IMG/VR virus record: IMGVR_UViG_2671181134_000012
Strand: one strand, 5' to 3'
DNA length: 7,995 nucleotides
Origin: a virus
Taxonomy: Duplodnaviria > Heunggongvirae > Uroviricota > Caudoviricetes
The notes under the pieces were generated by a model. It did not search any database, had not been told where the DNA came from, and worked only from the letters and a program-made list of their open reading frames with translations. Below, in pieces: positions 1-7,995 of this stretch. Each line of letters begins with the position of its first letter. The stretch's first letter is position 1. The translations under genes and the position numbers were made by a program.

Positions 1-1239
1 ATGAGCAGGGCAATTCATAGACTTAGCGACACTCTTTTACGAAAATTAAGCGGATCACCAACCACAAAAAACACCTTTTTTAATGATGGTGGCAACCTTA
101 GCGTAAGGCATTCAACCAATGGCCTGTTAACCTGGTATTTCACTTACAGGGCCGGAACAGGCAGGAAGGTAGCCCCTGAACGTCTGAGGCTGGGAAATTA
201 TCCAGATTTGAGCCTGAAAGCAGCCAGGGAAAAAGCGTCGCAGTGTCGCGCCTGGCTTGCTGAGGGTAAAAATCCACGCCATGAGCTTAATCACACCGTA
301 CAGGAAGCGTTATCACCTGTTACGGTTAAGGAAGCGCTCACTTACTGGCTTGAATCGTACGCGAAGGAAAAGCGCACAGATTACGAATCTCTGAAAAGCC
401 GGATCAATACACACATAATCAGCCATATTGGTGCTATGCCGCTGGAAAAATGCGAGCTACGCCACTGGCTGACCTGTTTTGATCAGCTTGCTAAGCGTAA
501 TCCGGTATCAGCAGGATTTTTGTTACAGGTATGCAAGCAGGCGCTTAAGTACTGCCGCAAACGACGCTACGCAATTACCAACGTTCTAGATGATATGGTT
601 GTAGGTGATGTTGGGAAAAAAGCAGAAATAAGCGAGCGCATACTAACAAACAAGGAGCTTGGGGAATTACTCCGCGCCCTGGATGAAAAAATTTACCCAC
701 CGTACTACAGCGCCCTGATTCGCCTCCTGATTGTCTTCGGATGTCGTACCACTGAGCTAAGACGCTCTGAGGTCCAGGAATGGGATTTTAAAGAAATGCT
801 CTGGACCGTGCCGAAAGAACATAGCAAAACGAAGGTAGCAATATTCAGGCCAATACCGGAAGCGATCTTGCCGTTCGTAACGAAGCTGGTGGAGCAGAAC
901 AGGCACACGGGATTATTGCTCGGAGAACTGAAAGGGCAATCATCCGTATCAGAGTACGGAAGAACGGCACACAGACGTATTAATCAAGCCCCCTGGACGT
1001 TGCACGACATCCGGCACACGTTTACAACGATGCTGAACGATTTAGGCGTGGATCCTCATGTAGTGGAGCAGCTAACCGCGCACCAGTTGCCAGGAATGCA
1101 ACGAGTCTATAATCACTCCCGTTATCTTGATGCAAAACGTGACGCTCTTAATCTATGGGTTGAGCGTCTCGAGCTTCTCCAGAACAATGATGAAAAAATC
1201 GTTGTTATGACCCCGCGAATTTACTCCCAAAATTCTTGA
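1..1239 (+). CDS. int: Tyrosine site-specific integrase, P4-like (N-terminal arm-binding domain plus catalytic domain)
   Basis: 412-aa ORF starting at ATG 1. The N-terminal region (LSDTLLRKLSG...WYFTYR...GNYPDLSLKAAREKA) resembles the DUF4102-type arm-binding domain of P4-family integrases. The C-terminal region carries tyrosine-recombinase motifs (GCRTTELRRSE, HDIRHTF, and a candidate catalytic Tyr in RVYNHSRY). Family assignment is by recognition, not a search. Confidence 0.92.
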   Translation: MSRAIHRLSDTLLRKLSGSPTTKNTFFNDGGNLSVRHSTNGLLTWYFTYRAGTGRKVAPERLRLGNYPDLSLKAAREKASQCRAWLAEGKNPRHELNHTVQEALSPVTVKEALTYWLESYAKEKRTDYESLKSRINTHIISHIGAMPLEKCELRHWLTCFDQLAKRNPVSAGFLLQVCKQALKYCRKRRYAITNVLDDMVVGDVGKKAEISERILTNKELGELLRALDEKIYPPYYSALIRLLIVFGCRTTELRRSEVQEWDFKEMLWTVPKEHSKTKVAIFRPIPEAILPFVTKLVEQNRHTGLLLGELKGQSSVSEYGRTAHRRINQAPWTLHDIRHTFTTMLNDLGVDPHVVEQLTAHQLPGMQRVYNHSRYLDAKRDALNLWVERLELLQNNDEKIVVMTPRIYSQNS

Positions 1240-1248
1240 CAAATTACG

Positions 1249-1274
1249 GCTATTTTTCTTGCGAAAAATAGCCC
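1249..1274. repeat. Perfect 11-bp inverted repeat with 4-nt loop (GGCTATTTTTC ttgc GAAAAATAGCC), 10 nt after the int stop
   Basis: Read directly from the sequence. The stem is AT-rich and not followed by a T-run, so it is more likely a protein-binding palindrome or weak terminator than a canonical intrinsic terminator. Confidence 0.5.
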
Positions 1275-1283
1275 TCTAAAATA

Positions 1284-1316
1284 AATCGTCGAATATCGGC
1301 AAATATCGACGATTTA
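1284..1316. repeat. 10-bp inverted repeat AAATCGTCGA / TCGACGATTT separated by 13 nt, in the int-alpA intergenic region
   Basis: Read directly from the sequence. Candidate operator or recombinase arm site; function not determinable from sequence alone. Confidence 0.4.
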
Positions 1317-1648
1317 TATGTGTCAAGTATTGAAAAAATTTGAAATGTCTTCTTCTGAGTTCTTATTCTCTGTTTCTTGATTGTTCCAACACCTGATGGT
1401 TTATCTATTTGTTTTTAATGAGATAATTTAAGTGTAATACCAAATGACGACATTTTTTTGTTGCGTCGCTTAAAAACTCGTGACACGATTTTATGAACAG
1501 CAGCAAACTCTAGCGAACTTTGACGAACATAAAGTTCAGAAAGGTTACGTATTCAATTTAAGAGGTAAGAAAAGCTAGGAAGTAATATCTTTCCGTATAT
1601 CCACAGCGAAACAAAAATTTCTATACGTAATTTTATGTAGGACTTTTT

Positions 1649-1858
1649 ATGCGCGAAATAAATGAAGATCGTGTAATCCGCGAAAAAGAATGCAGAGAGC
1701 TAACAGGCGTTTGCCGCACAACTCGTTACGAGATGGAAAAGCAGGGCCGCTTCCCCTCACGTATCAGTCTCGGCGGTCGTTCTGTTGGCTGGGTTAAGTC
1801 TGAGGTTATGGAATGGGTTAAAAGCAGAAATCGTATTAATTCAGGTAAGGCAGCGTAG
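1649..1858 (+). CDS. alpA: AlpA-family phage transcriptional regulator / excisionase-like protein
   Basis: 69-aa ORF with AGGA 6 nt upstream of ATG 1649. The sequence (CRELTGVCRTTRYEMEKQGRFPSRISLGGRSVGWVKSEVMEWVKSR) matches the recalled AlpA hallmark pattern (FP..I.LG.R.VGW...EV..W). The position directly after a P4-type int is the usual one. Confidence 0.88.
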   Translation: MREINEDRVIREKECRELTGVCRTTRYEMEKQGRFPSRISLGGRSVGWVKSEVMEWVKSRNRINSGKAA

Positions 1859-1884
1859 GGGGAACATATGACACATAAAACAAA

Positions 1885-1904
1885 GGCGACCTGTGGCGGT
1901 CGCC
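1885..1904. terminator. GC-rich hairpin (GGCGACC tgtggc GGTCGCC) between convergent alpA and the minus-strand RHH gene; candidate bidirectional terminator
   Basis: 7-bp perfect stem with 6-nt loop. On the minus strand it is followed by a T-rich tract (complement of AAAACAAA at 1877-1884); on the plus strand the downstream tract is A-rich. It therefore looks better as a terminator for leftward transcription. Confidence 0.45.
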
Positions 1905-1992
1905 AATGGGAAAACACTAAACATAAGCCAGAACATCATAGCGATTTGCTGTCTGGTGGGCAATGTGCTCAGTGTGCTGGCTTGCTGGTGGG

Positions 1993-2172
1993 CTATTCCT
2001 GCTCTTTGGCCTTGCGGCGCTGGCGGCGTTTGATTTCGCCTTTAACGGCAGTAACTATAAATTGCGCTTTGCTTTCACCTTCATCTAAATTTTTTTCTAA
2101 GTCTGCAACAACATCATGCGGGAATCTGGCATTTAACTGTTGCGACTTATTATTTGTTGAACCTGTTGCCAT
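1993..2172 (-). CDS. Ribbon-helix-helix (Arc/MetJ/CopG-like) DNA-binding protein, 59 aa
   Basis: Minus-strand ORF; preferred start is ATG at 2172 (complement) with AGAGGA 7 nt upstream. The track start at 2211 is GTG. The translation (QQLNARFPHDVVADLEKNLDEGESKAQFIVTAVKGEIKRR) aligns by eye to Arc repressor (FNLRWPREVLDLVRKVAEENGRSVNSEIYQRVMESFKK). Basic C-terminal tail. Confidence 0.65.
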   Translation of the reverse strand: MATGSTNNKSQQLNARFPHDVVADLEKNLDEGESKAQFIVTAVKGEIKRRQRRKAKEQE

Positions 2173-2192
2173 TACTGAATCCTCTCTAAGTT

Positions 2193-2285
2193 GGTGCGAT
2201 TCAGTATACACAAAAAAAATTCAGAGAAAAGGCTTGAGGTGCGATTCACTTGCTGATAGGTTAAAAACAGATGGTGCGATGCACC
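2193..2285. promoter_or_regulatory. Three copies of GGTGCGAT in the divergent intergenic region (2193-2203 GGTGCGATTCA, 2238-2248 GGTGCGATTCA, 2273-2285 palindrome GGTGC-GAT-GCACC); candidate operator array
   Basis: Repeats read directly. Copy 1 lies between a candidate minus-strand -10 (TATACT, complement of 2203-2208) and the RHH gene's ribosome-binding site, which is the arrangement expected for autoregulation. Confidence 0.45.
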
Positions 2286-2362
2286 AAATAACAACGCCCC
2301 GCAGTGGTGGCACACATGCAGGGCGTCTAACAACCAACGATAGCAACAGTATCGAGGTAGCT

Positions 2363-2566
2363 ATGTTAAATCATACCACACACCCGCAAGGGCGGGACTC
2401 GCACAACCTGAATAAATACATCTGGCGTTTTATCGCCCTGAGCACGGCACAACCGCGCGTGATTACCATCGAGGCCACCAGCGAACAGGAAACGCGTCAG
2501 CAATCTCCTGATGGCTGCGTGATGGTATTCGCCGCCCGTATTCGTCAGGGGGTGTTCCATGCCTGA
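2363..2566 (+). CDS. Hypothetical small protein (67 aa), first gene of a three-gene cassette
   Basis: ATG 2363 is preceded by GAGG with a 5-nt spacer. It is in frame with a long upstream open frame (1868-2566) that I consider non-coding. An alternative in-frame ATG at 2279 would give 95 aa. The stop TGA 2564-2566 overlaps the next start (ATGCCTGA). Confidence 0.5.
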   Translation: MLNHTTHPQGRDSHNLNKYIWRFIALSTAQPRVITIEATSEQETRQQSPDGCVMVFAARIRQGVFHA

Positions 2567-2879
2567 CATGACCAATTACCAGTACCTGATTAATCCGCAT
2601 TTTAACTGTGAGCATGATATTGCTAAAAAAGTTTATTCCGCTGCGGATGGGGCTACTGACAATATATCAATGGGTATTGCGTCAATTGGTAGCCTGATGT
2701 GGCATGCGTCAGAAAATAAGGAATATGACGAAAAGACCATGCGCATTGATATGGGTAATATCGGTTTGTTACTGGCAATGCTTGGGCAGTTTGATATTTC
2801 GTTACGGTGCACCATTGAAAATGCCACAGATGCATTAAATGCTATAAAGAAAGCGAATACTGATTCAAATCGGGGATAA
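2559..2879 (+). CDS. Hypothetical protein (106 aa), second gene of the cassette
   Basis: ATG 2559 overlaps the stop of the upstream ORF (translational coupling), with a G-rich SD-like stretch upstream. The protein has ordinary globular composition and no recognised motif. An alternative start is ATG 2568. Confidence 0.6.
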   Translation: MPDMTNYQYLINPHFNCEHDIAKKVYSAADGATDNISMGIASIGSLMWHASENKEYDEKTMRIDMGNIGLLLAMLGQFDISLRCTIENATDALNAIKKANTDSNRG

Positions 2880-2885
2880 ATAATC

Positions 2886-3185
2886 ATGAGAACTTATTTA
2901 TCTGGCTTGACTGCCAGCGGTTATGCACACCCCAAAATTATCCCCGGCGCTATTTATCTGGATAAGAACGGTAACAGAGTAACGGTAAAAGAACTGATGT
3001 TTGACCGTGTGTATTTTATCCGTGATGGCTATTCATTTCATAGTTCGCTGAACGTGGAGATCTTTATTAGCAGATTCAGGCGGGAAATCCCGCTTTCCAG
3101 AAATAACCATGTGTCATGTATCGATGTTGATAAAAAACTACAGGAACTGAAAAACATGATTGCCGCGTGGAGAGAGCAGAAATGA
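2886..3185 (+). CDS. Hypothetical protein (99 aa), third gene of the cassette, directly upstream of the primase gene
   Basis: ATG 2886 with GGGGA 9 nt upstream. The stop TGA 3183-3185 overlaps the primase ATG 3182 as ATGA, a classic coupling arrangement. No recognised motif. Confidence 0.6.
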   Translation: MRTYLSGLTASGYAHPKIIPGAIYLDKNGNRVTVKELMFDRVYFIRDGYSFHSSLNVEIFISRFRREIPLSRNNHVSCIDVDKKLQELKNMIAAWREQK

Positions 3186-4999
3186 AAAAAGCGCCAAATT
3201 TAAAACACCAGCCACGTGACAAAATGACGGAAGTCATCATTTTTGCGGGTAGTGATGCGTGGGCACATGCGAAGCAGTGGCAGGAACAGGACGGGCGACT
3301 GGCTGGCGATAACGTGCCACCTGTCTGGCTTGGAGAGCAACAACTTGCCGAACTGGACAACCTGCAAATCGTACCGGACGGACGCTATCGCGTGCGTCTC
3401 TATCAGGCGGGGTTATTGAGTCCGGGGCTTGTTAATACCATCGGGCAGAAACTGGCAGTGGCAGGTGTCAGGGATGCTGATTATTACCCTGAAGGAATGC
3501 ACAGCCAGAAACGGGAGAACTGGCGCGAATATCTGGAACGTGAACGGGCAGAGCAGGCGGAAAAGAAAAAGGTAGTTGAACTGCCTGTAAAGAAAAAAGA
3601 GCGGGTAAAAGACGATAACGCTTCATCACTGGCGCTTAACCAGATGGGAGCAAGTCAACGCGGCGAAGTTCTCCTGGCACATTATGGCGGTGAACTGGCG
3701 ATTCATGCTGACTCTGACACTGTTCACTATTACAACGGCGTTGTATGGGAGCCAGTACAGGATAAAGAATTACAGCGAGCTATGGCACAGATTTTCATTG
3801 ATGCGGAGATCAGCTATTCGCAGAACGCCATTAAATCGGCGGTCGATACCATGAAGTTAAGTTTGCCTGTAATGGGGAATACAGCCCGTAACCTGATTGG
3901 ATTCAGTAACGGTGTTTTTGATACCCGGACAGGCGATTTTCGGGAGCATAACAAAAACGACTGGTTGTTAATTGCCAGTGAATTACCTTTCAGCCCACCA
4001 GCAGAGGGGGAAACGCTGGCAACACATGCGCCGAATTTCTGGAAGTGGTTACGCCGTTCGGTGGCTGAGAATGACCGCAAGGCGGATCGCGTACTGGCTG
4101 CATTATTCATGGTGCTGGCGAACCGGTACGACTGGCAGTTATTCATTGAGGTAACAGGTCCAGGGGGAAGTGGTAAAAGCGTGATGGCGGAGATTTGCAC
4201 CATGCTGGCGGGTAAGGCCAACACGGTATCGGCAAGCATGAAGGCGCTGGAAGATGCCAGGGAACGCGCGTTAGTGGTTGGCTTTTCGCTGATTATCATG
4301 CCGGATATGACCCGTTACGCTGGTGATGGCGCAGGAATTAAGGCCATTACAGGCGGTGACAAGGTGGCAATCGACCCGAAGCATAAAGCCCCCTACTCAA
4401 CACGCATTCAGGCGGTAGTGTTGGCGGTGAACAATAACGCCATGTCATTCAGTGACCGCAGCGGGGGGATTTCACGTCGTCGGGTGATATTCAATTTTTC
4501 GGAGGTTGTACCGGAAAACGAACGCGACCCCATGCTGGCAGAAAAAATAGAAGGAGAGCTGGCGGTTGTGATTCGCCACCTGCTTACTCGTTTTTCTGAC
4601 CAGGACGAAGCTAAACGCCTGCTGTATGAGCAGCAGAAATCAGAAGAAGCTCTGGTGATAAAACGCGAGGGCGATTCGCTGGTGGACTTCTGCGGCTATC
4701 TCATGTCGTCGATAATGTGTGATGGTCTGTTAGTGGGTAATGCCGAAATTATTCCGTTCAGTCCGCGCAGGTATCTTTATCACGCCTATCTGGCATATAT
4801 GAGGGCACACGGATTCGGTAAACCTGTAACACTGACGCGCTTCGGTAAAGATATGCCGGGGGCAATGGCGGAATATGGCAGGGAGTATATGAAACGGAAA
4901 ACGAAGCACGGTTTGCGTTCAAATGTGACCCTGACAGAGGATTCAGAAGACTGGATGCCATCATGTGCATCGGTCACAAATGACGATGGAAAAAATTAA
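3182..4999 (+). CDS. Replication initiator: P4 alpha-like primase/helicase (D5_N-like region plus SF3 helicase NTPase domain)
   Basis: 605-aa ORF from ATG 3182 (the track's 3167 start is GTG). It carries Walker A (TGPGGSGKS), a hydrophobic stretch ending in Asp (LVVGFSLIIMPDM) as Walker B, and the SF3 motif C asparagines (LAVNNNAMSF). This architecture matches the P4-family phage/plasmid primase C-terminal domain. A TGTTCACC iteron array lies immediately downstream. The N-terminal ~150 aa are not assigned. Confidence 0.85.
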   Translation: MKKAPNLKHQPRDKMTEVIIFAGSDAWAHAKQWQEQDGRLAGDNVPPVWLGEQQLAELDNLQIVPDGRYRVRLYQAGLLSPGLVNTIGQKLAVAGVRDADYYPEGMHSQKRENWREYLERERAEQAEKKKVVELPVKKKERVKDDNASSLALNQMGASQRGEVLLAHYGGELAIHADSDTVHYYNGVVWEPVQDKELQRAMAQIFIDAEISYSQNAIKSAVDTMKLSLPVMGNTARNLIGFSNGVFDTRTGDFREHNKNDWLLIASELPFSPPAEGETLATHAPNFWKWLRRSVAENDRKADRVLAALFMVLANRYDWQLFIEVTGPGGSGKSVMAEICTMLAGKANTVSASMKALEDARERALVVGFSLIIMPDMTRYAGDGAGIKAITGGDKVAIDPKHKAPYSTRIQAVVLAVNNNAMSFSDRSGGISRRRVIFNFSEVVPENERDPMLAEKIEGELAVVIRHLLTRFSDQDEAKRLLYEQQKSEEALVIKREGDSLVDFCGYLMSSIMCDGLLVGNAEIIPFSPRRYLYHAYLAYMRAHGFGKPVTLTRFGKDMPGAMAEYGREYMKRKTKHGLRSNVTLTEDSEDWMPSCASVTNDDGKN

Positions 5000-5010
5000 A
5001 CTTATGGAAT

Positions 5011-5241
5011 AACTGTTCACCACTGTTCACCCTGCAATAAATGTCTTTTATATCAGTATATTATAGGGTGAACAGTTATTTATGAACTGTTCACCAAACT
5101 ATTCACTGTTCACCTTTTTGATTCTTTATTGAGCTTTAAGGGTGAACAGTGGTGAACAGTTGGTGAATAGTTTTTGTGAAACTATTCACCCCTTAACATC
5201 ATGAATAAAAAGGGAAAATTGCAAAAGGTGAACAGGTGAAG
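5011..5241. repeat. Iteron array / candidate replication origin: at least 8 perfect and several degenerate copies of TGTTCACC (GGTGAACA) in both orientations
   Basis: Perfect copies on + at 5013-5021, 5023-5031, 5087-5095 and 5106-5114; on - at 5067-5075, 5141-5149, 5151-5159 and 5227-5235. Degenerate copies at 5162-5172 and 5180-5190. The 22-mer AACTGTTCACCACTGTTCACCC (5011-5032) is the exact reverse complement of 5140-5161. There are two inverted pairs with 7-nt spacers (5067-5095 and 5162-5190) and an AT-rich stretch at 5033-5066. Confidence 0.8.
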
Positions 5242-5286
5242 GGTTGAAATGCAAAAATTTTATTTTATTGCTGTGAGGTAAAGCCT

Positions 5287-5526
5287 GTGACAACGAAGCA
5301 CGCCAAAAAACCACAATCTCACGCCCTTGATTTGACAGAACACTGGCTGAGGGTGGCGATAAAAATCATCGACCGCAACGCCGGGGAAGGATACGCGAAA
5401 GCACATCCCGAACTGATAAGCGCATTCATGACCACGACGGCGGCAAACTTTGCCACGCTGACAGAACGGGAGATTGCCGAAGCGGAACAGGTAACAACCA
5501 TCAACGTTAAAAGCGCTGGAGAATAA
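5287..5526 (+). CDS. Hypothetical protein (79 aa, GTG start)
   Basis: GTG 5287 with GAGG 8 nt upstream, followed by an intrinsic terminator. The overlapping minus-strand ORFs have Cys/Ser-rich antisense-like composition, so the + strand is preferred. Confidence 0.5.
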   Translation: MTTKHAKKPQSHALDLTEHWLRVAIKIIDRNAGEGYAKAHPELISAFMTTTAANFATLTEREIAEAEQVTTINVKSAGE

Positions 5527-5544
5527 CCGAAGTAGTGAACACAT

Positions 5545-5568
5545 AGCCGGAGCAATCCGGCTTTTTTT
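5545..5568 (+). terminator. Rho-independent terminator (AGCCGG agcaat CCGGCT followed by TTTTTTT)
   Basis: 6-bp GC-rich stem, 6-nt loop and a 7-T run, read directly, 19 nt after the stop of the 79-aa ORF. Confidence 0.7.
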
Positions 5569-5602
5569 CGATCTCGCATATCTTAAAAAATGGTTGATTG
5601 AT

Positions 5603-5608
5603 TATAAT
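5603..5608 (+). promoter_or_regulatory. Candidate -10 hexamer TATAAT for the downstream small-ORF / terS / capsid operon
   Basis: Consensus TATAAT about 50 nt upstream of GTG 5657, with an A-tract upstream. No convincing -35 was found, so this is tentative. Confidence 0.3.
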
Positions 5609-5656
5609 CTATCGAAAATACTGATTATTAGATGATAAGCATCAGGAGGAAACAAA

Positions 5657-5851
5657 GTGGAACAGATAAAGCAAAGCGCTACCGTGATGATTGATCACGA
5701 GATCCTAAACGAGCTTAAAAAACTTCAATTCGATGTTATTCGCCGGATGAATGAAGCTGGTATATACGGCAGAGCCGCCACGCCAACAGTAGGCCATCTT
5801 GCTCGCGTGCTGTTACGCGAACGCCTGGGCATTGCAACAGGTGAGGAATAA
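5657..5851 (+). CDS. Hypothetical small protein (64 aa, GTG start), possibly DNA-binding
   Basis: Strong SD (AGGAGG, 5643-5648) 8 nt upstream of GTG 5657. The N-terminal segment (SATVMIDHEILNELKKL) has a strand-then-helix pattern that could be RHH-like, but this is weak. Confidence 0.5.
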   Translation: MEQIKQSATVMIDHEILNELKKLQFDVIRRMNEAGIYGRAATPTVGHLARVLLRERLGIATGEE

Positions 5852-5853
5852 CA

Positions 5854-6015
5854 ATGGCTATCACAGAACGCGAGGCAAGCATCATTAAAGCCATTGGCGA
5901 GGAAACAAGAGACACGATAGCGCCATTAATGGAAAAGATCGCAGAGCTTGAGAGACGAATAAACAAGCTGAGTGATGAAGTTGAAGGCCTGATCTCGTTA
6001 CTCGGTGAGCAATGA
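5854..6015 (+). CDS. Hypothetical small protein (53 aa), predicted helical / coiled-coil; absent from the supplied ORF track
   Basis: ATG 5854, 2 nt after the stop of the upstream ORF, with GAGGAA just upstream. The translation (MAITEREASIIKAIGEETRDTIAPLMEKIAELERRINKLSDEVEGLISLLGEQ) has heptad-like hydrophobic spacing. It is a short ORF, so coding status is uncertain. Confidence 0.4.
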   Translation: MAITEREASIIKAIGEETRDTIAPLMEKIAELERRINKLSDEVEGLISLLGEQ

Positions 6016-6070
6016 CAGGGGGGGAGTGTTCCGGCCGGAAAGTCGATCGCCCTGGACACCGCCCCCCGTC
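6016..6070. other. GC-rich structured element: G7 run (6018-6024), 12-bp palindrome TTCCGGCCGGAA (6029-6040), CGATCG (6044-6049), C6 run (6062-6067)
   Basis: Read directly. The G-run and C-run could pair to enclose the palindrome. It sits between the 53-aa ORF and terS; a cos/pac-type or regulatory role is possible but unproven. Confidence 0.4.
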
Positions 6071-6095
6071 TCATTCGTAGAAAATTTTGCTTTTC

Positions 6096-6121
6096 AAAAA
6101 AGTTACACGAAAAGTTACACC
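6096..6121 (+). repeat. Two direct copies of AAAAGTTACAC with 12-bp period in the terS leader
   Basis: AGTTACAC at 6101-6108 and 6113-6120, non-coding, 22 nt upstream of terS ATG 6143. Confidence 0.6.
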
Positions 6122-6142
6122 CCCTCAAAACGAGGTTTTTGC

Positions 6143-6631
6143 ATGGCATTAACGACCAAAAAAAAGCGGTTTGCTGATGCGTTATCAAGGGGCGCAAATC
6201 CCACGGAAGCCGCTATACATGCGGGATACAGCGAAAAGACCGCAAGGGTTAAAGGCTGGCAGCTATCCAATGATCCTGAGGTGAAAAAGTATCTTAAGGC
6301 TGTAACTTCTGATGTAACTTTTCAGGTTACAAAACCGAAAAAAGTTACAAAGAAAGTTACCGAAAAAGTTACACCGGAACGGGCATCAATTAACACCATT
6401 GAGATGATGGATAACGGCCTACCCGACCCCATCAAAGCAATGGGCAGGATACTGATTGACAACATGGACACAGATCCAAAACTGGCTTTAGATGCCGCGT
6501 TTAAGCTGGCCCAGTTCACCCACCGCAAGATCGGCAGCATTGGGAAAAAAGAGGTTAAAAAACTCAATGCCGCTAGTGTCTCCTCAAATCGGTTCCCCAT
6601 CCCTAAGCCACCAACAGGCTTAAGACACTGA
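6143..6631 (+). CDS. terS: Terminase small subunit (SF6 G1P-like, Terminase_2-type N-terminal HTH)
   Basis: ATG 6143 with GAGG 6 nt upstream. The N-terminus (KKKRFADALSRGANPTEAAIHAGYSEKTARVKGWQLSNDPEVKKYL) closely resembles the SF6-like TerS DNA-binding domain (KQERFIEEY...NATKAAIAAGYS...A). A Lys-rich repeat linker (KKVTKKVTEKVT) follows. Confidence 0.82.
   Translation: MALTTKKKRFADALSRGANPTEAAIHAGYSEKTARVKGWQLSNDPEVKKYLKAVTSDVTFQVTKPKKVTKKVTEKVTPERASINTIEMMDNGLPDPIKAMGRILIDNMDTDPKLALDAAFKLAQFTHRKIGSIGKKEVKKLNAASVSSNRFPIPKPPTGLRH
6300..6375. repeat. 12-bp periodic AGTTAC array inside terS: inverted copies GTAACT at 6302 and 6314, direct copies GGTTAC 6325 and AGTTAC at 6343, 6355 and 6367
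   Basis: Read directly. The period equals that of the upstream leader copies. It is encoded as an xxVT peptide repeat (AVTSDVTFQVTKPKKVTKKVTEKVTP). Confidence 0.6.
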
Positions 6632-6642
6632 GGTATCGAACT

Positions 6643-6804
6643 ATGAGCGAATACATCACAGACCCTATTGATGTACTCACGGAAATCATGAACGACAAGC
6701 AGCAGCCAACCGAAATACGGTTACAGGCTGCCGCTGTTCTGATGCCATATTTTCACGAAACCCTAACCCCATGTTACCAGGAGGAAGAAGATGATGATTT
6801 CTAA
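6643..6804 (+). CDS. Hypothetical small protein (53 aa) with acidic C-terminus (QEEEDDDF); absent from the supplied ORF track
   Basis: ATG 6643 with GAGG 9 nt upstream. Its 3' end overlaps the capsid gene start by 14 nt. Short ORF, uncertain. Confidence 0.4.
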   Translation: MSEYITDPIDVLTEIMNDKQQPTEIRLQAAAVLMPYFHETLTPCYQEEEDDDF

Positions 6805-7717
6805 AAACATGAAAGGCGTGTCGGCAGTTCGCGCCGCCAGCGTGCTTACATCGTGTAAATTCAGCCATGCAGACGCAATTGAAATGACGAAAAAAAATGA
6901 TCCGGCAGTATCGAAATTTCTTGAAAAATCCATCGTCAACAGAATGACTACGGATAACATGCCGTCGCTGGTGGCAGAGCCGATAGTAAGAGAGCTTGGC
7001 GAGTATATTTTTTCGCAGTCTGTACCAGGCAAGCTAATCAGCAGCGCGCTGAATCTTCCTTTTGGCGCAAAATTGCAGTCAATATCAGGCAAGGGTAGTA
7101 AATGGCTTAAAGAAGCCGAAGAAATCCCAATCAAAGAGGGAGAAGTAAACGAAAGCGCGCTAAAACTGTGCAAACTCGGCGCTATTGTGATGCTGAATAA
7201 CGAGCTAATCAAATTTAGCACCCCTGGTACCAATTCAGCGATCAGAGACTTAATCACATCGGAATCGGTGAAAGAAATAGATAAAAAATTTCTTTCCAGT
7301 GACCAGGAGGTGGCTGGCGTATCCCCTGAGGGTGTGCTTAATGGTGCTGATGAGGCCGAAAACTTCATAGAGCTTTTCAAAAAGCACATAGCGAACGGTA
7401 ACACGCTTTCCACGTCGTCGCTAATCTTGCCCGTAGAAAACGCCTTACAGCTTACTGATGCTGAGTTCTGGCAGATAGAGCTTTTGAGAATACCGGTAAT
7501 TGTGAGCGAACAGGCTGATCGCATGATGCTGATAGACGCTCAAAAGCTGATTATTAACGTTGAAGCCACGGTTATAACCCCAACTGATGAGGCGGTAATA
7601 AAAACCGAATCAGGGGCGGTTAGCCTTTTCCAGAATGACGCTACAGCGTTCAGGGCAATCACCTATTGCGGATGGCAAAAACTCGATAAGGCCGTCACCG
7701 TTCTGGCGAAAAGCTGA
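6791..7717 (+). CDS. Putative major capsid protein, HK97-fold (Phage_capsid-like), 308 aa
   Basis: AGGAGG (6779-6784) 6 nt upstream of ATG 6791. The central region (KLGAIVMLNNELIKFSTPG...IDKKFLSSDQEVAGVSPEGVLNGADEAENF) aligns by eye with the HK97 gp5 region (IAHWVQASRQVMDDAPML...GLALKEEGQLLNGDGTGDNLEG). Its size fits a capsid core without a delta domain. Not confirmed by any search. Confidence 0.6.
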   Translation: MMISKNMKGVSAVRAASVLTSCKFSHADAIEMTKKNDPAVSKFLEKSIVNRMTTDNMPSLVAEPIVRELGEYIFSQSVPGKLISSALNLPFGAKLQSISGKGSKWLKEAEEIPIKEGEVNESALKLCKLGAIVMLNNELIKFSTPGTNSAIRDLITSESVKEIDKKFLSSDQEVAGVSPEGVLNGADEAENFIELFKKHIANGNTLSTSSLILPVENALQLTDAEFWQIELLRIPVIVSEQADRMMLIDAQKLIINVEATVITPTDEAVIKTESGAVSLFQNDATAFRAITYCGWQKLDKAVTVLAKS

Positions 7718-7734
7718 TTTTTCCGGCATCAATC

Positions 7735-7758
7735 CAGATATGGTGATCCCCATATCGG
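7735..7758. repeat. Imperfect hairpin (GATATGG tgatcc CCATATC) downstream of the capsid gene
   Basis: 7-bp stem and 6-nt loop read directly, with no clear T-run. Weak terminator or operator. Confidence 0.3.
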
Positions 7759-7797
7759 GATAATTACGAAATTTTCGCAGTTTAATAGGTGACCAGA

Positions 7798-7995
7798 ATG
7801 ACAGAAGCCGAAAATTATGTGCGTGTTGTTGCTGAGGTGATGCGCCGTGATGGTATCCAGCTTAATGATGTGGATATGCGCAACATACGGATCCGCGTTC
7901 TTGAAATGCTGGCCTACCGTCGCCGCGTGCAGACGTACAGGGAAAAAGCAAAAATTACGTACCACTGGAAGAGGCAGGAGCGGTTACGGCGGTAA
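7798..7995 (+). CDS. Hypothetical small basic protein (65 aa), Arg-rich C-terminus
   Basis: ATG 7798 with AGGTGA 7 nt upstream (the track start 7789 is GTG). The stop TAA is at the last three bases of the window. Translation: MTEAENYVRVVAEVMRRDGIQLNDVDMRNIRIRVLEMLAYRRRVQTYREKAKITYHWKRQERLRR. Confidence 0.5.
   Translation: MTEAENYVRVVAEVMRRDGIQLNDVDMRNIRIRVLEMLAYRRRVQTYREKAKITYHWKRQERLRR

Follow-up and report, generated by a model that had tools for sequence, protein, structure and literature searches.

The 7,995-nucleotide stretch of DNA considered here (the window) is the IMG/VR record IMGVR_UViG_2671181134_000012, a viral sequence assigned to the Caudoviricetes. It most probably represents 8.0 kb of an 8.9-kb Escherichia coli phage satellite, a classical, non-capsid-forming example among phage-inducible chromosomal islands (PICIs); the proposals made below for its capsid homologue, its packaging (pac) site and its life cycle are part of the same reading. 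As a class, these islands are known, published and abundant, and the present one is no new kind of system; its less-characterised details, namely a mini-protein, a pac-like array and the role of a capsid paralogue, are modestly interesting leads. The island contains an integrase gene (int), the regulator gene alpA, a primase-replicase-type initiator gene (pri-rep) with a replication origin (ori), a small-terminase gene (terS) and a capsid-morphogenesis gene, which together are all five core components of the 'Type A' PICI of SatelliteFinder. Its head genes are limited to the one small-terminase gene and one scaffold-less capsid homologue.

An earlier note on this DNA had described it as an integrated phage satellite of PICI or P4 type, which gene content and att repeats support, and more specifically as an island resembling the capsid-forming PICIs (cf-PICIs), which build their own heads. 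This second part requires correction: a satellite is not capsid-forming by virtue of having terS and a capsid gene, a pair that classical Type A islands of E. coli carry as standard.

Gene content and boundaries of the island

In the SatelliteFinder model, a classical PICI comprises an integrase, a regulator (AlpA, MerR or Stl), a primase-replicase, a capsid-morphogenesis gene (mostly in Proteobacteria) and a small terminase; portal, head-tail connector, head-tail adaptor, tail and holin components are forbidden (PMC10085698). Type A islands, which have all five components, are found to 97% in E. coli, and the median PICI is 9.5 kb in size (PMC10085698). The cf-PICIs have 11 core components and are told apart by a large-terminase gene (terL), a head-tail adaptor and a connector; the left halves of PICIs and cf-PICIs are homologous to each other, as are their capsid and TerS components (PMC10085698). 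PICIs from Gram-negative hosts are further characterised by rightward transcription, alpA dependence and an origin directly 3′ of the initiator gene, in which two sets of iterons surround AT-rich DNA (PMC6092414).

Pfam, PHROG and NCBIfam scans were run on a six-frame listing of the open reading frames (ORFs) of the window (Table 1). Pfam and PHROG matches confirm the integrase, AlpA, the helicase/initiator, TerS and the capsid homologue. The gene order of the earlier note (int, alpA, primase/helicase with iteron origin, terS and HK97-like capsid gene) is thereby upheld, with the place of each gene, except that the genes are not all co-oriented as it had stated: the gene at 1993-2211 is the sole minus-strand gene of the window. 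No Pfam or PHROG match among the window ORFs points to a portal, protease, TerL, connector, head-tail adaptor, HNH, tail or lysis gene, nor to a holin, which is barred from the PICI model together with the portal, head-tail connector or adaptor and tail components. Every feature of a classical PICI that can be tested on sequence is thus present, those specific to cf-PICIs are all absent, as are psu, sid and delta of P4, and 5 of the 11 cf-PICI core components are found. An own capsid protein and TerS do not discriminate between cf-PICIs and PICIs, because they are common to both classes.

The resemblance to the classical Type A islands extends to the leftmost position of int, the AlpA regulator, the essentially rightward transcription, the pri-rep gene followed by an ori with two iteron sets around AT-rich DNA, the combination of terS with a capsid homologue, the lack of portal, connector, tail and lysis genes, and the E. 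coli host. There is no difference in kind; terS precedes the capsid gene here, whereas the capsid component is listed before terS in PMC10085698. In contrast to the prototype EcCICFT073, which uses Rpp and a cos site, the island encodes a TerS of Terminase_2 type without a match to Rpp structures: a phmmer search of TerS against all PDB chains (E<=1) gave weak matches to TerS DNA-binding domains only and no Rpp entry, on the assumption that the Rpp structures reported in PMC6739421 have been deposited.

Satellite P4 also has an integrase, an AlpA-like regulator and a helicase/initiator of the P4 family next to an origin; the helicase part is homologous, with the initiator at 97 bits against TIGR01613, below the cut-off of 108.7. 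An Icd-like gene is present in the window and an ash-family gene in a sister element, both of which would fit a P4-like satellite with a P2-type helper, Sid-like external scaffolding and cos packaging. However, int, alpA and primase alone cannot separate P4 from PICIs (PMC10085698), Pfam and PHROGs yield no match to Psu, Sid or Delta for any ORF, and no Rfam family reaches threshold in the window. Unlike P4, the island lacks psu, sid, delta and a recognisable primase domain; it has instead a Terminase_2 TerS and a capsid homologue, both absent from P4 and both related to lambdoid head modules. A P4-like satellite is therefore very improbable.

The boundaries of the island can be deduced from near-identical chromosomal copies. 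E. coli O111:H11 88-19539 has, between cspD/yljB and clpS, a region (locus L001) to which the window is 98.5% identical. A 21-bp att core, ATA[G/A]ATGATAGTTAT[C/T]TATCA, is single in the empty site of K-12; in the occupied site, the yljB-clpS spacer, it is duplicated as a direct repeat around the element, and both copies are intact. Extension into the flanks, proposed in the earlier note as a way to find att repeats, thus located them 8910 bp apart in the near-identical E. coli copies. Their position is not at a tRNA or tmRNA gene, as had been guessed, but for this element in the yljB-clpS intergenic region, and ARAGORN finds no tRNA or tmRNA in the window.

The window spans exactly from the int ATG to the stop codon of the last ORF. 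In L001, attL lies ~170 bp upstream of int, and attR follows ~730 bp past the window end. The prediction that the window breaks off inside a morphogenesis module, with further head genes downstream, fails at this point: beyond the capsid gene there are a remnant ORF and these ~730 bp, which hold no annotated gene and no convincing ORF, and then attR and clpS. The situation is the same at loci L005 and L006, from O157 AR-0427 and ERL06-2442. These near-identical copies (3 genomes including 88-19539) are 98-100% identical, and from terS to the capsid gene ERL06-2442 does not differ from the window (100% identity). A fourth context is provided by strain 97-3250 (L007, 1369-9628), in which terS, the mini-protein ORF and the capsid gene are located at tRNA-Pro, accompanied by another integrase and by a helicase of RepA type; here too the element closes with the capsid gene, directly next to which lies the chromosomal gene yejO.

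No terL, portal or protease gene is present in the complete element of any of these four contexts (L001, L005, L006 and L007), and tail and lysis genes, which would point to a complete prophage, are likewise not found between the att repeats. Since no morphogenesis gene follows the capsid gene in any of the four genomic contexts, the prediction of portal, protease, terL and connector genes is refuted; and because terL, portal, protease, head-tail adaptor and connector are absent within the att repeats, the island is not a cf-PICI. For the near-identical copies, which are att-bounded and have no further head genes, the cf-PICI view was rejected outright. For the window itself, the idea that the island builds its own heads, borrows only tails and has the rest of its head module just outside the window draws on terS and a genuine HK97-fold capsid homologue, and on the homology of left halves, capsid and terS between the two classes, likenesses which it shares with cf-PICIs such as EcCIEDL933 (bioRxiv 10.1101/2022.09.08.507074) in int, alpA, primase/helicase, terS and the HK97-fold capsid gene. 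Unlike these cf-PICIs, the island has no terL, portal, prohead protease, HNH, head-tail adaptor or connector gene and therefore cannot build or fill heads of its own. In addition, the capsid homologue lacks a scaffold or protease partner, and 8.9 kb is near the classical PICI median. We consider a capsid-forming island highly improbable.

Further observations were made at the ends of the element and at its integration site. Clusters of TGTTCG repeats and a tandem motif, GGTGTAGT[C/T]AATGGTGTAGTTAAT, occur at both element ends (L001 7839-7984 and 16590-16662, outside the window), just inside attL and attR and in the same orientation; they probably serve as arm-type binding sites for the integrase. 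To the right of the window are two pairs of direct repeats that may be recombination scars, one of 38 nucleotides with 89% identity between window end and attR (L001 15998-16035 and 16217-16254), the other of 19 nucleotides with 95% identity (L001 15749-15767 and 16518-16536), one copy of which is at the 3′ end of the capsid gene. Sister elements at the yljB-clpS att site have the same left half (L004 8508-12741), and in place of terS, mini-protein ORF and capsid gene they have another right half that comprises a single-stranded DNA-binding protein (SSB), a 637-aa ClpP/gpT-type protease-capsid fusion and a DUF1441 protein. The DUF1441 protein has no PDB match, and an identity as Rpp could not be shown for it. 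Modules are thus shuffled between elements, and backbone modules are exchangeable.

The terS-capsid cassette and its likely helpers

The 308-aa product of the last large gene is confirmed as a homologue of HK97-fold major capsid proteins and represents the 'capsid morphogenesis' gene of the PICI. The fold, already assigned to this protein in the earlier note, is borne out by PF05065 (28.4 bits against a cut-off of 24.2), by AlphaFold and by Foldseek. An exhaustive HMMER profile search returned 1797 relatives at E<=0.001, which include a short set of 310-350 aa, capsid proteins of ~450 aa and proteins of 630-670 aa that match in their C-terminal part only, as fits protease-capsid fusions. A profile of 39 sequences matches the PDB capsid proteins 9d9w (4e-19) and 80alpha 6b0x (4e-11), whereas a PDB search with the single sequence gave nothing meaningful. 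Similarly, the AlphaFold model from a 4-sequence alignment was unusable (pLDDT 37), and the 39-sequence alignment drawn from the exhaustive search yielded pLDDT 89.9 and pTM 0.86. Foldseek aligned this model to 292 PDB entries at E<=1e-3, the best 50 being HK97-fold capsids, encapsulins or engineered cages derived from them; the matches include Bxb1, the SaPI1/80alpha capsid, HK97 and the SaPIbov5 procapsid 7rwz with Ccm (E 3e-9). In the viral structure library BFVD there were 244 matches at E<=1e-3, and nearly all of the named best ones are capsid or prohead proteins.

Residues 8-305 of the homologue align to residues 291-633 of a 645-aa fusion of S78 protease and capsid protein found in helper-type prophages (24% identity, E 8e-18). 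The protease and the intervening region of the fusion are missing from the homologue; by analogy, this intervening region would be the scaffold. Because it matches only the capsid part of a protease-scaffold-capsid fusion, the homologue probably cannot build heads alone. Its 308-aa form, ending in '...VLAKS', is the common, intact form; in 88-19539, an A-run near the end of the gene (window 7709-7717; L001 15729-15771) is one A shorter, which results in a frameshifted form of 322 aa.

TerS points in the same direction. Its start is most likely the ATG at 6143 rather than the listed ORF start at 6005. Compared with TerS of Shiga toxin (Stx) and 'PPompW' prophages, it is 47% identical overall, with a strongly uneven distribution: identity amounts to 62% in residues 1-50 (the helix-turn-helix), 17% in 51-86, 70% in 87-136 and 35% in 137-162. 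From this pattern we infer that the island TerS has kept what is needed to engage the helper terminase and has a DNA specificity of its own.

A candidate for the DNA recognised by TerS is an array of AAAGTTAC, which occurs in 6 copies in the window against 0.20 expected, all within the short segment given in Table 1. Two copies are arranged at 12-bp phase upstream of the terS ATG, three at 12-bp phase inside terS, where they encode KKVTKKVTEKVT, and one is inverted. The positions are conserved in two relatives (L010, 6493-6748, and L012), one of them with a TerS that is 58% identical; copy number varies. At the helper-type phage locus AAAGTTAC is absent, and A[A/C]ATGTTAAC repeats are found upstream of the phage's own terS instead. 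By its position and conservation, the array is a candidate island-specific pac site. The layout recalls pacL and pacR of phage SPP1, whose TerS belongs to the same Pfam family, a likeness that serves as a lead and not as a test. GTAAC half-sites are interspersed with the AAAGTTAC(A) repeats. Upstream of terS, the non-coding block ATCGCCCTGGACACCGCCCCCC is 100% conserved in both relatives despite diverged flanking DNA, and may have a role in regulation or packaging.

Between terS and the capsid gene, whose start it overlaps by 14 nucleotides, lies the ORF of a mini-protein with an acidic tail (EEEDDDF). BLASTP yields no alignment between the mini-protein and TerS; their likeness rests on the PHROG profile match (Table 1) and on a Smith-Waterman score of 37, compared with 23.4 +/- 4.1 for shuffled sequences and reached by 13 out of 2000 shuffles. 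Four E. coli copies share an identical mini-protein; in L010 and L012 it is 66% identical, as compared with 58% for TerS and ~50% for the capsid protein in one relative. A role as terminase decoy or as a factor like Ppi is possible. A pair of ORFs for 64 aa (5657-5851) and 53 aa (5854-6015) always precedes terS in this cassette and has no significant family match.

A tblastn search of ~50,000 phage records with TerS and the capsid homologue led for both proteins to one group of lambdoid prophages, which comprises Stx1a-, Stx2c- and some Stx2a-converting phages as well as 'PPompW' prophages. Their head module has the order TerS (Terminase_2), TerL, the 645-aa S78 prohead protease/capsid fusion, and portal. 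As TerS (47%) and the capsid homologue (24%) both resemble this same module, the helpers of the island are likely to be lambdoid, often Stx-converting prophages that carry it. Helper-type terS-terL is present in 1255 genomes, often in several copies. Out of 60 evenly sampled helper-carrying genomes, 3 are among the ~40 listed cassette carriers, with ~0.4 expected under independence by a rough estimate; this co-occurrence of satellite and helper is suggestive and is confounded by lineage.

The cassette of terS, mini-protein ORF and capsid gene was detected in 220 of 5426 complete E. coli genomes, at 95-100% identity. Many of the listed carriers belong to serogroups associated with Shiga toxin-producing E. 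coli (STEC; O157:H7, O111, O121), which would make interference with Stx phages in these strains a matter of practical interest. A literature search yielded no publication that deals with this cassette or with interference of PICIs with Stx phages. A first homologue search gave 3-5 relatives, and a pattern search of genome contigs with alignment A4 gave 96 matches, 0 of which were confirmed. In the relative L010, an 8.4-kb contig, int is followed by small ORFs, a 767-aa primase with Zn-ribbon, Toprim and D5 domains, SSB, terS, a 51-aa ORF and the capsid gene, so that the compact int-to-capsid architecture is conserved at ~50% identity, with the trio of genes and the AAAGTTAC array.

These data bear on the question of whether the island is a decayed, immobile remnant of a cf-PICI or prophage, with terS and the capsid gene as leftovers. 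Signs of decay do exist: the last ORF is a fragment and has become a pseudogene in several copies, the capsid gene of one copy (H1) is frameshifted at its 3′ end, and the pri protein is without a recognisable primase domain. However, both att copies are intact, and the cassette is complete in all 220 carrier genomes. The ratio of non-synonymous to synonymous polymorphism (pN/pS) among close copies is 0.24-0.30 for terS and 0.16 for the capsid gene, and the ratios are 0.26-0.43 in comparison with the ~50%-identical relative; by these measures terS and the capsid gene are under purifying selection, and the mini-ORF is conserved better still. The relative has the same compact architecture, and the combination of the cassette with two or more distinct int/rep/att backbones implies that it has recently been mobile and that modules have been exchanged. 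An immobile remnant is accordingly unlikely.

Proposed life cycle and role of the capsid homologue

On the reading of the island as a classical PICI, a life cycle can be proposed, in which the first three steps follow by analogy with studied PICIs and the last three from the sequence features described above. A helper prophage entering lytic growth would trigger alpA, the gene whose expression is induced by the helper in Gram-negative PICIs (PMC6092414). Int and AlpA would then excise the island at the 21-bp att core, and the superfamily 3 (SF3)-helicase initiator would bind the ACTGTTCACC iterons just 3′ of its own gene and replicate the island. Next, the island TerS, with its helper-like C-terminal half and diverged middle, is predicted to bind the AAAGTTAC array, which lies partly within terS and partly upstream of it, and to recruit the helper TerL to this satellite pac for headful packaging. 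The 308-aa protein would enter helper-driven procapsids and, most likely in the manner of Ccm, alter their size or poison phage-sized assembly. Finally, the TerS-like mini-protein may interfere with the helper terminase.

Precedents for the capsid step come from two islands. Ccm of the staphylococcal pathogenicity island (SaPI) SaPIbov5 occupies pentons and redirects capsid size (PMC8569155), and PmCI172, which also has a capsid homologue, is reported to form small capsids (PMC6092414). Like Ccm, the 308-aa protein is a satellite-encoded HK97-fold homologue of a helper capsid protein. In contrast to Ccm, it comes from a Gram-negative bacterium and resembles Ccm in fold only, with no relationship detectable at sequence level; SaPIbov5, a cos island, lacks a TerS of its own, whereas the present island has one; and penton occupation and shape shift of Ccm have been seen by cryo-EM, while the 308-aa protein is known here from sequence and predicted structure. 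The pac-type SaPIs, which encode TerS-S and Ppi, are similar in that the island TerS presumably has the helper TerL as its partner and a pac of the island's own as its target, and in that a small adjacent protein may interfere with the helper terminase. They differ in that the mini-protein has no sequence relationship to Ppi, and in that a capsid paralogue, as a putative remodeller, takes the place of the CpmA and CpmB scaffolds.

Alternatively, in an element of the same kind, the capsid homologue could be purely an anti-phage poison subunit that aborts helper heads, with the island packaged as multimers in full-size heads. A capsid paralogue that lacks a scaffold could plausibly act as a dominant-negative subunit, E. 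coli PICIs of Rpp type are packaged in capsids of phage size, with no redirection to a smaller one (PMC6739421; bioRxiv 10.1101/2022.09.08.507074), and headful packaging driven by TerS needs no matched capsid size. Conversely, the precedents for capsid homologues point to small capsids, as shown for Ccm (PMC8569155) and suggested for PmCI172 (PMC6092414), abolition of all head assembly would block the transfer of the island itself, and PADLOC finds no defence-system match for the capsid homologue or for any small ORF. A pure poison is thus possible, though not probable.

A more far-reaching proposal concerns the terminal cassette as a whole, which might be a three-part kit directed against one head-module family of lambdoid, often Stx-converting prophages. 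The capsid paralogue would then be the first Gram-negative counterpart of Ccm, entering and shrinking helper procapsids, and the mini-protein a new terminase decoy that is functionally Ppi-like. We regard this combination as rather doubtful; if true, such islands would modulate the yield of Stx phages in STEC. With a scaffold-less paralogue of the helper fusion, a likely pac array and a conserved mini-protein, the cassette constitutes a clean test case for what the capsid homologues of Gram-negative PICIs do.

Several points weigh against the island as a classical PICI with the life cycle outlined above. At 8.9 kb, it would make up ~1/5 of a helper of 44-50 kb, where the usual share is 1/3. 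Deletion of the capsid-like c1499 of EcCICFT073 did not restore normal lambda plaque formation (PMC6092414), so that such capsid-like genes are not always interference factors. Co-assembly with the helper capsid is not assured, because identity is only 24%. Conservation of AAAGTTAC could in part be due to the KKVT peptide repeat that it encodes. The estimate of co-occurrence is a crude one, and phylogeny confounds it, as STEC lineages are rich in lambdoid prophages. Moreover, the island boundaries are taken from copies of 98-100% identity, and induction, helper identity, packaging mode and capsid size of the island are all deduced from its sequence.

Replication module and remaining features

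The Pri-Rep initiator is 605 aa long from its ATG (3182) and 610 aa from an upstream GTG (3167). Its N-terminal 173 aa have no Pfam match, and no primase catalytic domain was recognised in the protein; as the first ~170 residues match no Pfam primase domain, only the helicase/initiator part of the 'primase' is supported, and the island may depend on a host or helper primase. The corresponding 767-aa protein of the relative L010 is a primase version with Zn_Ribbon_Prim and Toprim_3 domains. Directly 3′ of the helicase stop codon there is a field of iterons, in agreement with the description of PICI origins (PMC6092414): ACTGTTCACC is found 10 times in 5012-5236 (0-1 mismatch, both orientations) and twice elsewhere, compared with 0.28 expected in the whole window.

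The coordinates of all features are collected in Table 1. The 68-aa ORF at the right end is intact in the window and occurs as a truncated or partial pseudogene in L001, L005 and L006; it is probably a remnant.

Table 1. Genes and other features of the window, with strand and supporting evidence
Feature	Position	Strand	Evidence
int, tyrosine integrase, 412 aa, with arm-DNA-binding domain	1..1239	+	PF00589 1.4e-18; PF13356 (Arm-DNA-bind_3) 7.9e-17; phrog_1 1.1e-68
alpA, AlpA-family regulator/excisionase, 69 aa	1649..1858	+	PF05930 7.9e-18; phrog_2790 4e-17
YlcI/YnfO-family small protein	1993..2211	-	NF041551 2.3e-17; phrog_949 6.9e-24; annotated in L001, L005, L006
Icd-like host cell division inhibitor, 67 aa	2363..2566	+	NF033153 5.4e-18; phrog_6196 2.5e-53
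Hypothetical protein, 106 aa	2559..2879	+	phrog_15327 1.6e-71; no Pfam or PADLOC match
DUF4222 protein, 99 aa	2886..3185	+	PF13973 7.2e-17
Pri-Rep initiator: D5_N, SF3 helicase (DUF5906), Pox_D5 C-terminal domain	3182..4999 (GTG from 3167)	+	phrog_864 2e-193
Replication origin: two opposed ACTGTTCACC iteron sets around AT-rich spacers	5008..5236	.	iteron counts, layout
Hypothetical protein, 79 aa	5287..5526	+	phrog_1231 8.9e-47
Two small ORFs, 64 aa and 53 aa (the latter coiled-coil-like)	5657..6015	+	annotated in L001, L005, L006, L007
Non-coding block ATCGCCCTGGACACCGCCCCCC, 22 nt	6046..6067	.	alignment of relatives
Candidate pac / TerS-binding array of AAAGTTAC	6099..6372	.	repeat count, conserved layout
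terS, small terminase, 162 aa, Terminase_2 type	6143..6631	+	PF03592 2.6e-10; phrog_641 5e-44
Acidic-tailed mini-protein, 53 aa, like central helical region of TerS	6643..6804	+	phrog_641 positions 89-126, E 8.2e-7
HK97-fold major-capsid-protein homologue, 308 aa, without protease or scaffold domain	6791..7717	+	PF05065 28.4 bits
Small terminal ORF, 68 aa	7789..7995	+	phrog_1561 positions 31-93 of 93, E 3.3e-33

Scans of the window for sigma-70 promoters and terminators showed no enrichment over shuffled sequences, with a single hairpin worthy of note. This strong hairpin, AGCCGGAGCAATCCGGCT followed by a T-run (5545-5562, past the 79-aa ORF), resembles an intrinsic terminator and is located between the replication module and the packaging cassette, which suggests that the cassette is a separately controlled transcription unit.

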